Assembly (NCBI RefSeq): GCF_044324875.1
Contig: NZ_CP172192.1
From: Escherichia coli
GTDB lineage: Bacteria > Pseudomonadota > Gammaproteobacteria > Enterobacterales > Enterobacteriaceae
DNA: 1,983 nucleotides
Reading direction: 5' to 3' (one strand)
The position numbers and the translations under genes are program-made. Of this stretch, positions 1 to 675 are shown in pieces. The notes under the pieces were generated by a model. The model was not told where the DNA came from. It saw nothing but the letters and a program-made list of their open reading frames with translations, and ran no database searches. Positions within the stretch are counted from its first letter, which is position 1; every line of letters starts with the position of its first letter.

Positions 1-33
1 TGCGCGGTCCGACATTCCCACATCCTGTCCCGA
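1..33 (-). repeat. Inverted-repeat arm, proximal 33 bp (reverse complement of 289..321), truncated by the window start
   Basis: Exact 33/33 reverse-complement match to 289..321. Together with 1933..1983 it reconstitutes the full 84-bp arm if the window ends are joined. Confidence 0.95.
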
Positions 34-372: not shown

Positions 373-513
373 CAACGCCTCACGGCACGCGAAAAAATTC
401 CGCGTACCGCTCACCGTTCTTGAACTCGTCAAACAGAAAATCGCGGGGCCCCGCGCCTCCGGCGTGGGTTCCGATTTTGTGATTGACGACGGCACGGGGA
501 AAACGCTGGGTAT

Positions 514-568
514 GGTGGTTGGTGTCACGGAGTGAGGCCAACCACCTGCAAGACGGTTTTTTGTTGTT
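514..568 (+). other. Stem-loop followed by a T-rich tract
   Basis: GGTGGTTGG (514..522) pairs perfectly with CCAACCACC (538..546) around a 15-nt loop. TTTTTTGTTGTT (557..568) follows after a 10-nt gap. Confidence 0.3.
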
Positions 569-601
569 CACAAAATTGGGGTGAAAGTCTGTGGATGAGA
601 T

Positions 602-634
602 GGGTGTAAGTGGGTGGGGTTGGGAGGTTTTGGG
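602..634 (+). other. G-run cluster fitting a G-quadruplex motif
   Basis: GGG 612..614, GGGG 616..619, GGG 622..624, GGG 632..634 with loops of 1, 2 and 7 nt, plus extra G-runs at 578..581 and 602..604, within a GT-rich stretch 577..640. Confidence 0.3.
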
Positions 635-675
635 TTACTGAAAATCCAGCTCAAAATTCAAGCAAATCTCGCGCG

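Follow-up and report, generated by a model that had tools for sequence, protein, structure and literature searches.

A homologue of the filamentous-phage minus-strand origin as the probable single-strand origin of the small ColpVC plasmid pB

What is the role of a perfect hairpin, followed at some distance by a run of T, in a plasmid with a single solid gene? The question is raised by a stretch of 1,983 nucleotides from Escherichia coli (contig NZ_CP172192.1; this whole stretch is referred to as the window), in which a preliminary description, made from the sequence alone, had pointed out such a hairpin at 514-568. The window is 100% identical to NC_005002.1, the plasmid pB of Salmonella Enteritidis, which is a complete circle of 1983 bp, and its replicon type is ColpVC. 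Window positions are obtained by subtracting 1123 from the NC_005002.1 position, around the circle. The only solid gene of pB is rep, encoding a rolling-circle initiator. We propose, with a probability of roughly 75%, that 412-570 is homologous to the minus-strand origin that filamentous phages of the Ff/IKe type carry, and that it serves as the single-strand origin (sso) of pB, most likely by means of the host RNA polymerase. The reported hairpin is the second half of this two-hairpin element of ~150 nt on the + strand, the parts of which are as follows.

412-570, + strand: whole Ff/IKe-type minus-strand-origin-like element, proposed sso of pB (covariance model 112.5 bits, E 9e-24)
426-489, + strand: upstream long hairpin, counterpart of Ff hairpin [B]; an inverted repeat with arms at 426-443 and 472-489 and a G+C-rich tip
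490-513, + strand: linker ACGGCACGGGGAAAACGCTGGGTAT, unpaired in the consensus structure and an A-rich stretch in most homologues
514-546, + strand: the reported hairpin, counterpart of Ff hairpin [C], with a perfect 9-bp stem, a T-G wobble and an inner 4-bp helix
546-548, + strand: CTG at the 3' base of the hairpin, with T547 predicted to template the nucleotide at which the primer begins (pppA)
547-562, + strand: single-stranded 3' tail TGCAAGACGG and T-run at 557-562; the tail is conserved with M13 and IKe

The hairpin itself is as the preliminary description had it. The 9 bp of GGTGGTTGG (514-522) pair fully with CCAACCACC (538-546), and TGCAAGACGG (547-556) lies between the stem and TTTTTT (557-562), giving the claimed offset of 10 nt. 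Further in, T523 and G537 form a wobble, and 4 bp between 525-528 and 532-535 make an inner helix that leaves a GGA loop. When 500-575 was folded, which had been proposed as a check, the energy was -30.6 kcal/mol for RNA (z -3.67) and -17.1 kcal/mol for single-stranded DNA (ssDNA; z -3.31), and in neither case was any of 200 shuffles as good. Taken alone, a perfect 9-bp stem is only mildly unusual, as dinucleotide-shuffled versions of the window contain 0.18 such hairpins on average and 13% of them contain at least one. What speaks decisively against chance are the comparative data, namely the compensatory changes and the covariance-model match, and not the stem alone.

Homologues were retrieved with a pattern consisting of GGTTCCGATT, a gap of 40-62 and TCACGNAGTG, which left the stem columns of the reported hairpin free and which was run on 100,044 species-representative genomes. 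The scan returned 48 loci, about half of which were chance matches, as expected for 19 specified bases, and these were dropped after blastn and inspection. Twenty sequences were aligned: pB, M13, three further ColpVC-type plasmids, one Col(BS512) plasmid, four copies from an IncFII context, and others, among them copies from Brenneria, Enterobacter, Xenorhabdus, Pectobacterium, Kosakonia, Pantoea and Kluyvera. The RNAalifold consensus of these sequences contains exactly two hairpins, corresponding to pB 426-489 and 514-546. The upstream hairpin (columns 18-45 with 58-83) has 24 pairs, nine of them compensatory, and 97.1% of its cells are paired. The reported stem (columns 111-120 with 134-143) has 10 pairs, five of which change on both sides, and 98.5% of the cells are paired. 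Exemplified by T-A to G-C, T-A to A-T, and G-C to T-G to T-A, these compensatory changes keep the stem in the homologues.

Over the whole consensus of 36 pairs, 97.6% of the pair cells are standard, compared with 32-45% when the 3' partners are slid by one to three columns. Changes on both sides are seen in 14 of the 36 pairs, and the covariation score of 0.303 was reached in none of 500 shuffles (0.100). Furthermore, a covariance model built from 19 homologues with pB left out (model R1) matched the window at 412-570 on the + strand with the score listed above, against only 20-22 bits on the - strand. An Rfam search of the window gave only one chance-level match, away from the element.

The kinship with filamentous phages came to light through cloning vectors. 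One recurrent pattern hit, on contaminant contigs, was what we took to be the f1 origin, and its sequence was then confirmed by the M13 record; the presence of this vector-borne origin among the hits led to the comparison with M13. Over 98 nt, pB 466-561 and M13 5655-5750 share 71% identity (pairwise E 7e-8). The M13 segment is intergenic, belongs to the viral strand and is followed closely by the site of the plus-strand nick. Like the pB element, the M13/f1/fd origin consists of two neighbouring hairpins, [B] of ~60 nt and [C] of ~30 nt and comparable in size to those of pB, on the strand that occurs as ssDNA. It contains GGTTCCGATT, TCACGNAGTG and CCTG, has the tail AGACGGTTTTT with a T-run 10 nt past the stem, and sits directly upstream of both the plus-strand nick site and the gene of the initiator. 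The two differ in that M13 is an inovirus whereas pB is a Rep_1 plasmid; in the stem letters, GGTGGTTGG/CCAACCACC in pB and GGGTGATGG/CCATCGCCC in M13, which are linked by compensatory changes; in the tip of hairpin [B], which is longer in pB; and in the gap to the nick region, which is ~125 nt in pB and ~25-45 nt in M13. The M13 minus-strand origin is a promoter-like ssDNA template for sigma70 RNA polymerase (PMC7948647), and the M13 + strand, nicked at 5781/5782, is primed by RNA polymerase (PMC11765958). Priming by this enzyme, which is rifampicin-sensitive and takes place on ssDNA coated with SSB, is thus known from the literature for M13, whereas for pB it is proposed by homology.

The phage IKe, which was outside the sequences of model R1, served as positive control, and scored 106.7 bits exactly over its two annotated stem-loops. 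Its record (X02139.1) labels 6333-6385 and 6410-6438 as 'minus-strand origin stem loop structure', and the first of these aligns with pB 426-489, the second with the reported hairpin at 514-546. The IKe origin resembles pB in its score with the same model (106.7 vs 112.5 bits) and in the tail TTGTTAGACG with a T-run at the 10-nt offset, but its start site reads TTG where that of pB reads CTG, and it is part of a phage genome.

As an observation in its own right, the f1 phagemid origin was found nearly verbatim on 12 short, low-coverage contigs. They belong to unrelated assemblies, including SAR11, Nitrospira, Paracoccus, Fructilactobacillus, Streptomyces and Mycobacterium, and most likely represent cloning-vector contamination of public genome assemblies.

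The displaced T-tract is shared with the phages. The sequence after the stem is CTGCAAGACGGTTTTTT in pB, CTGATAGACGGTTTTT in M13 and TTGTTAGACGTTTTTTT in IKe, with the T-run at exactly +10 nt in all three, and AGACGGTTTTT is common to the tails of pB and M13. A T-run is found 9-12 nt past the stem in 15 of 21 family members (alignments read by eye), and is absent in six, which are copies from the IncFII context, Brenneria and Enterobacter. The T-run is a conserved part of the 3' flank of the origin, and no degenerate terminator tail. A basal helix between the T-run and the upstream A-run, enclosing the start site, was considered and rejected, as in 19 of 20 sequences shuffled 3' flanks paired just as well (best fraction 0.02).

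Between stem and T-run lies the predicted start site. None of the 20 aligned sequences departs from T at position 547, whose counterpart in M13 is the T of CCCTG, and for C546 and G548 conservation is 90% or more. The fd/M13 primer, pppAGGGCGAUGGCCCACUACGU, reportedly starts at the T of CTG and is the complement of hairpin [C] (Geider et al. 1978).

A hairpin with a nearby T-run could also act on RNA, as a transcription terminator or bidirectional attenuator, for instance one that ends the following hypothetical gene.

299-535, + strand: hypothetical coding sequence WP_000263637.1 (RefSeq), which overlaps one copy of an origin of transfer (oriT) and most of the proposed sso, with its stop codon in the hairpin loop

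This possibility draws on the strength of the RNA fold (-30.6 kcal/mol, z -3.67), on the minimum-energy fold of 500-575, which adds flank pairs up to 555, one base before the U-run, and on the end of the RefSeq coding sequence at 535. In addition, the IKe record also tags its stem-loops 'pot. transcription termination'. However, the T-run stands 10 nt off the perfect stem, compared with 0-2 nt in an intrinsic terminator, and a terminator scan made no call at the site, in agreement with the earlier judgement that this is not a canonical intrinsic terminator. The additional flank pairs, which could bridge this distance, are matched by shuffled flanks, in pB as well as in the homologues. The open reading frame (ORF) upstream is not conserved, as the corresponding frame, ending at the TGA in the loop, is open for only 16-17 codons in six related plasmids, and the ORF is without a match in Pfam; the gene call is probably spurious. 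The window yielded no sigma70-like promoter, six family members are without any T-run, and phages, Rep_1 plasmids, a mobilisable island and IncFII plasmids share the same element in spite of unrelated upstream genes. With the scan negative, the ORF unconserved and no promoter found, the terminator was rejected, and we regard it as most improbable.

If the element is a single-strand origin, it should lie on the strand that is displaced during rolling-circle replication. Two further features are relevant here.

685-712, + strand: probable double-strand origin (dso; nick region) ATCCTTGTATTTATACTTAAGGGATAAC, of which TCCTTGTATTTATACTTAAGGGATAA is invariant upstream of rep
944-1933, + strand: rep, rolling-circle initiator (Pfam Rep_1, PF01446, E 7.5e-85), annotated as 'protein rep' in NC_005002.1

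Rep_1, the Pfam class of the pB Rep, is the pC194/pUB110 family of rolling-circle initiators. Upstream of rep, the sequence TCCTTGTATTTATACTTAAGGGATAA shows no variation among seven plasmids with Rep identities of 69-100%, and is kept unchanged even in the Col(BS512) plasmid with a 69% identical Rep. The block at 685-712 resembles the nick region of pC194, CTTGATAATAAGGGTAAC, on the same strand. It is therefore likely that 685-712 is the Rep nick region, with the nick on the + strand.

In each of the 13 loci with a Rep_1 gene (Rep 60-100% identical to that of pB), the element and rep share the same sense strand, and the element is located ~125 nt 5' of the invariant nick-region block. The order of sso, dso and initiator gene in pB is the same as that of minus origin, plus origin and gene II in M13. 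Because the element is upstream of the nick, it would be exposed only when leading-strand synthesis is nearly complete. The structure also favours the + strand. As ssDNA, 419-565 folds with -35.7 kcal/mol on the + strand (z -3.81) and with -28.8 kcal/mol on the - strand (z -2.93), a gap of ~7 kcal/mol. Throughout the alignment, two of the pairs are always G-T, and several further ones are often G-T; these become A-C mismatches on the opposite strand, so that the + strand is favoured. The suggestion of the preliminary description, that the hairpin may be a structural element of a single-strand origin or a priming site, is thus supported by the alignment to the second stem-loop of a filamentous-phage minus-strand origin, by a location on the strand expected to be displaced, and by a covarying stem, with the function assigned by homology.

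Homology to a phage origin could also mean that the element is an inactive relic, gained by recombination, and that the lagging strand of pB is primed elsewhere or non-specifically. Single-strand origins are dispensable in many rolling-circle plasmids, and the minus origin of M13 can be deleted. However, compensatory substitutions keep the pairing across plasmid lineages with 60-100% Rep identity, which points to selection within plasmids, and the element has the same orientation to rep in 13 of 13 loci. Furthermore, no other candidate element was found in the window, where the other large inverted repeat is an oriT. We therefore consider a relic very unlikely.

The single-strand origins of Gram-positive plasmids (ssoA, ssoU, ssoT and ssoW) are orientation-specific folded ssDNA on the displaced strand, at which a host enzyme makes one RNA primer for the lagging strand (PMC8860593). 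The pB element would have the same role, but has no sequence relationship to them, and the host range of pB is enterobacterial. The CS-6 motif TAGCGW, which belongs to the terminal loop of ssoA, is absent from both strands of the whole window.

Taken as a minus-strand-type origin, the element would work as follows. Rep would nick the + strand near 685-712, and leading-strand synthesis would displace the + strand as ssDNA, with the element, upstream of the nick, being displaced last. The hairpins at 426-489 and 514-546 would then fold on the single strand coated with SSB and be recognised by a host enzyme, which by homology to M13 is most likely the sigma70 RNA polymerase. A short primer, predicted to be 5'-AGGUGGUUGGCCUCACUCCG, would begin opposite T547, where the hairpin has its 3' foot, and run on into the hairpin as a copy, and would be extended by a host DNA polymerase to give the - strand. 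Both priming at the element and the enzyme responsible are what we infer from the homology with the phages.

The choice of enzyme is where a second candidate has to be weighed. Initially, the 75% match to IncFII plasmids pointed to a G site of the type found in phage G4, that is, a single-strand initiation site on the + strand primed directly by the DnaG primase. This lead was revised once the family included the f1/M13 origin, and was kept as an alternative. In pB as in G4, CTG stands at the foot of a hairpin: the annotated G4 primer (3970-3997) starts at the T of a CTG just 3' of a hairpin, and CTGCAA is common to G4 and the pB tail. The family members in an IncFII context, in which CTGCAAAGCCA(A/G)... 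matches G4 over at least 13 nt, are found ~630 nt downstream of repA, and their strand is the one on which a leading-strand start would be expected. Plasmid R1 carries a primase G site at a similar place downstream of repA. The G sites of G4 and of the plasmids R1 and R100 are thus like pB in having a hairpin followed by CTG, with the primer starting, or in pB predicted to start, at the T, but differ in the sequence and number of hairpins and in that their enzyme is primase.

Several observations speak against primase in pB. The homology over the whole element is to M13 and IKe and not to G4, with which pB has only the short tail CTGCAA in common. In G4, model R1 had no match (best 5 bits, E > 2, filters off), nor did it have one in a 50-kb stretch of R100 (44282-94281, including the region downstream of repA/oriR). 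The pB tail is M13-like (AGACGGTTTTT) and not G4-like. The CTG varies within the family, being TTG in IKe and TTA in Xenorhabdus, while its T is constant, which fits a start with A better than a strict need for CTG. M13 ssDNA, with the same CTG, is not known to be primed by primase alone, and we count this against primase as well. Direct priming of pB by DnaG is, in our view, unlikely.

Separately from the element, R100 carries CCCTGCCAGACCA ~720 nt downstream of repA (L006 46106-46118, - strand), on the strand expected for leading-strand priming. It resembles the start-region consensus CTG(C/A)NAGAC of pB, M13 and locus L047, and the surrounding sequence has no match to the double-hairpin model. 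This may be the start region of the R100 G site.

Overall, the element has the features of an Ff/IKe-type minus-strand origin that can be computed, namely two hairpins, homology, and strand and position. Several points weigh against the assignment. The accessible literature yields no experiment on pB or on any plasmid of the ColpVC or pKYM type, and no description of an sso in these plasmids was found there; the function is assigned by homology. The identity to M13 is only 71%, and blastn of pB 420-575 against the phage collection gave no match at E <= 0.01; it took the pattern scan, the covariance model and pairwise alignment to bring the homology out. The columns of GGTTCCGATT and TCACGNAGTG are invariant by construction, as they were fixed in the retrieval pattern. 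The aligned sequences share descent, and therefore the shuffle controls overstate the significance, the slid-partner control being fairer. The nick polarity of the dso is a deduction. As to the enzyme, the conserved CTG is also the recognition triplet of DnaG primase, and the tail of the members in an IncFII context (CTGCAAAGCCA...) is nearly identical to the primer-start region of the primase-dependent G4; RNA polymerase is put forward by homology to M13.

The other large repeat of pB was considered as an sso candidate as well. An 84-bp perfect inverted repeat pairs 289-372 with 1933-1983 plus 1-33, the latter being contiguous across the circle junction. It was rejected, as each copy is an oriT of the IncI1/IncK type (R64-type, MOBP), in those plasmids located just upstream of nikA/nikB. 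Homologous segments of 86-88 bp are found ~15 nt upstream of nikA/mobA-nikB, with 95.3% identity in IncK2/Z and 79.5% in IncI-gamma/K1, and window 20-29, CACATCCTGT, fits the MOBP nick consensus. Model R1 had no match in the oriT loci. The plasmid pB is typed 'mobilizable', although it encodes no relaxase of its own.

It is unusual for a plasmid of 2 kb to carry two oriT copies in inverted orientation. The 255-bp segment between them (34-288) is inverted in pVCM01 (NC_019127.1), with a 99.6% match on the opposite strand, while the rep of pVCM01 is at the same coordinates (84-1073) and the whole plasmid is 99.4% matching pB. The segment therefore behaves as an invertible one, by homologous or relaxase-mediated recombination between the oriT copies, unless one of the records is misassembled. 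In other ColpVC plasmids, only the first 25-28 nt of the repeat are present in two inverted copies, ~200-260 bp apart.

A further conserved structure is found closer to rep. At 795-851, ~90-150 nt upstream of the rep start, a compound hairpin has an outer helix GTGGTCGCG/CGTGACCAC that is changed to GTGATCGTG/CGCGATCAC in a Pantoea plasmid, and inner helices CCCCCG..CGGGGG and AACGA/TCGTT, the second of which is changed to GAGTG/CACTC. These changes are compensatory, and the hairpin may be a rep leader or a copy-control structure. A copy number of ~80-110 per cell has been reported for ColpVC and Col(BS512) plasmids (PMC6118388).

How widespread is the element? Window 400-640 is matched by 902 PLSDB plasmid records, which besides close ColpVC relatives include 2.1-kb Col(BS512) plasmids at 77% and large Salmonella IncFII plasmids at 75%, in the latter ~630 nt downstream of repA. 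In the database records the region is either unannotated or covered by a doubtful ORF. The copies in the Salmonella-type IncFII plasmids (L002 3981-4132; also L020, L030 and L055) carry the same double hairpin, on a strand from which priming would send synthesis away from repA and oriR. Their tail, CTGCAAAGCCA(G/A/T)..., is nearly that of the annotated primer-start region of G4, CTGCAAAGCCAAAAGGAC, and is not followed by a T-run. Two tail types can thus be told apart, that of pB (AGACGGTTTTTT) and that of IncFII and G4 (CTGCAAAGCCA).

Copies were also found outside these settings. In two large conjugative IncF plasmids (L003 and L004) they adjoin fragments of Rep_1 genes that are 52-72% identical to the pB Rep, and the L003 copy is located between IS26 elements. 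Both copies are integrated remnants of small rolling-circle plasmids and not part of the native IncF backbone. The chromosome of Enterobacter sp. JUb54 carries a copy (L028 2257-2410, - strand) ~1.1 kb from a mobilisation module with a NikA-like protein and a relaxase, on the opposite strand, which suggests that it may be used as a complementary-strand priming site in an integrated mobilisable element.

One could speculate that the double hairpin is a modular, mobile priming cassette, passing between replicons as different as inoviruses, Rep_1 plasmids, IncFII theta plasmids and mobilisable islands, in which the 3' tail picks the enzyme. In such a cassette, AGACGG with a T-run at +10, as in M13, IKe and pB, would recruit RNA polymerase, whereas CTGCAAAGCCA, as in the IncFII plasmids, would recruit the DnaG primase, and the double hairpin may mark the leading-strand start in Salmonella IncFII plasmids. 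We put this forward as a tentative and rather doubtful idea.

As 'cryptic' passengers present at high copy number, ColpVC and Col(BS512) plasmids are very common in Salmonella, E. coli and Klebsiella, and their records annotate little beyond rep. The assignment of an sso helps to complete the map of this replicon, with oriT, sso, dso and rep, and would account for an unannotated conserved block in ~900 PLSDB plasmid records, while suggesting that the overlapping hypothetical gene is spurious. It predicts that the primer starts at T547 and that its synthesis is sensitive to rifampicin. Furthermore, the same priming signal is found in phages, rolling-circle plasmids and IncFII plasmids, which bears on the exchange of lagging-strand and leading-strand start signals among mobile elements.

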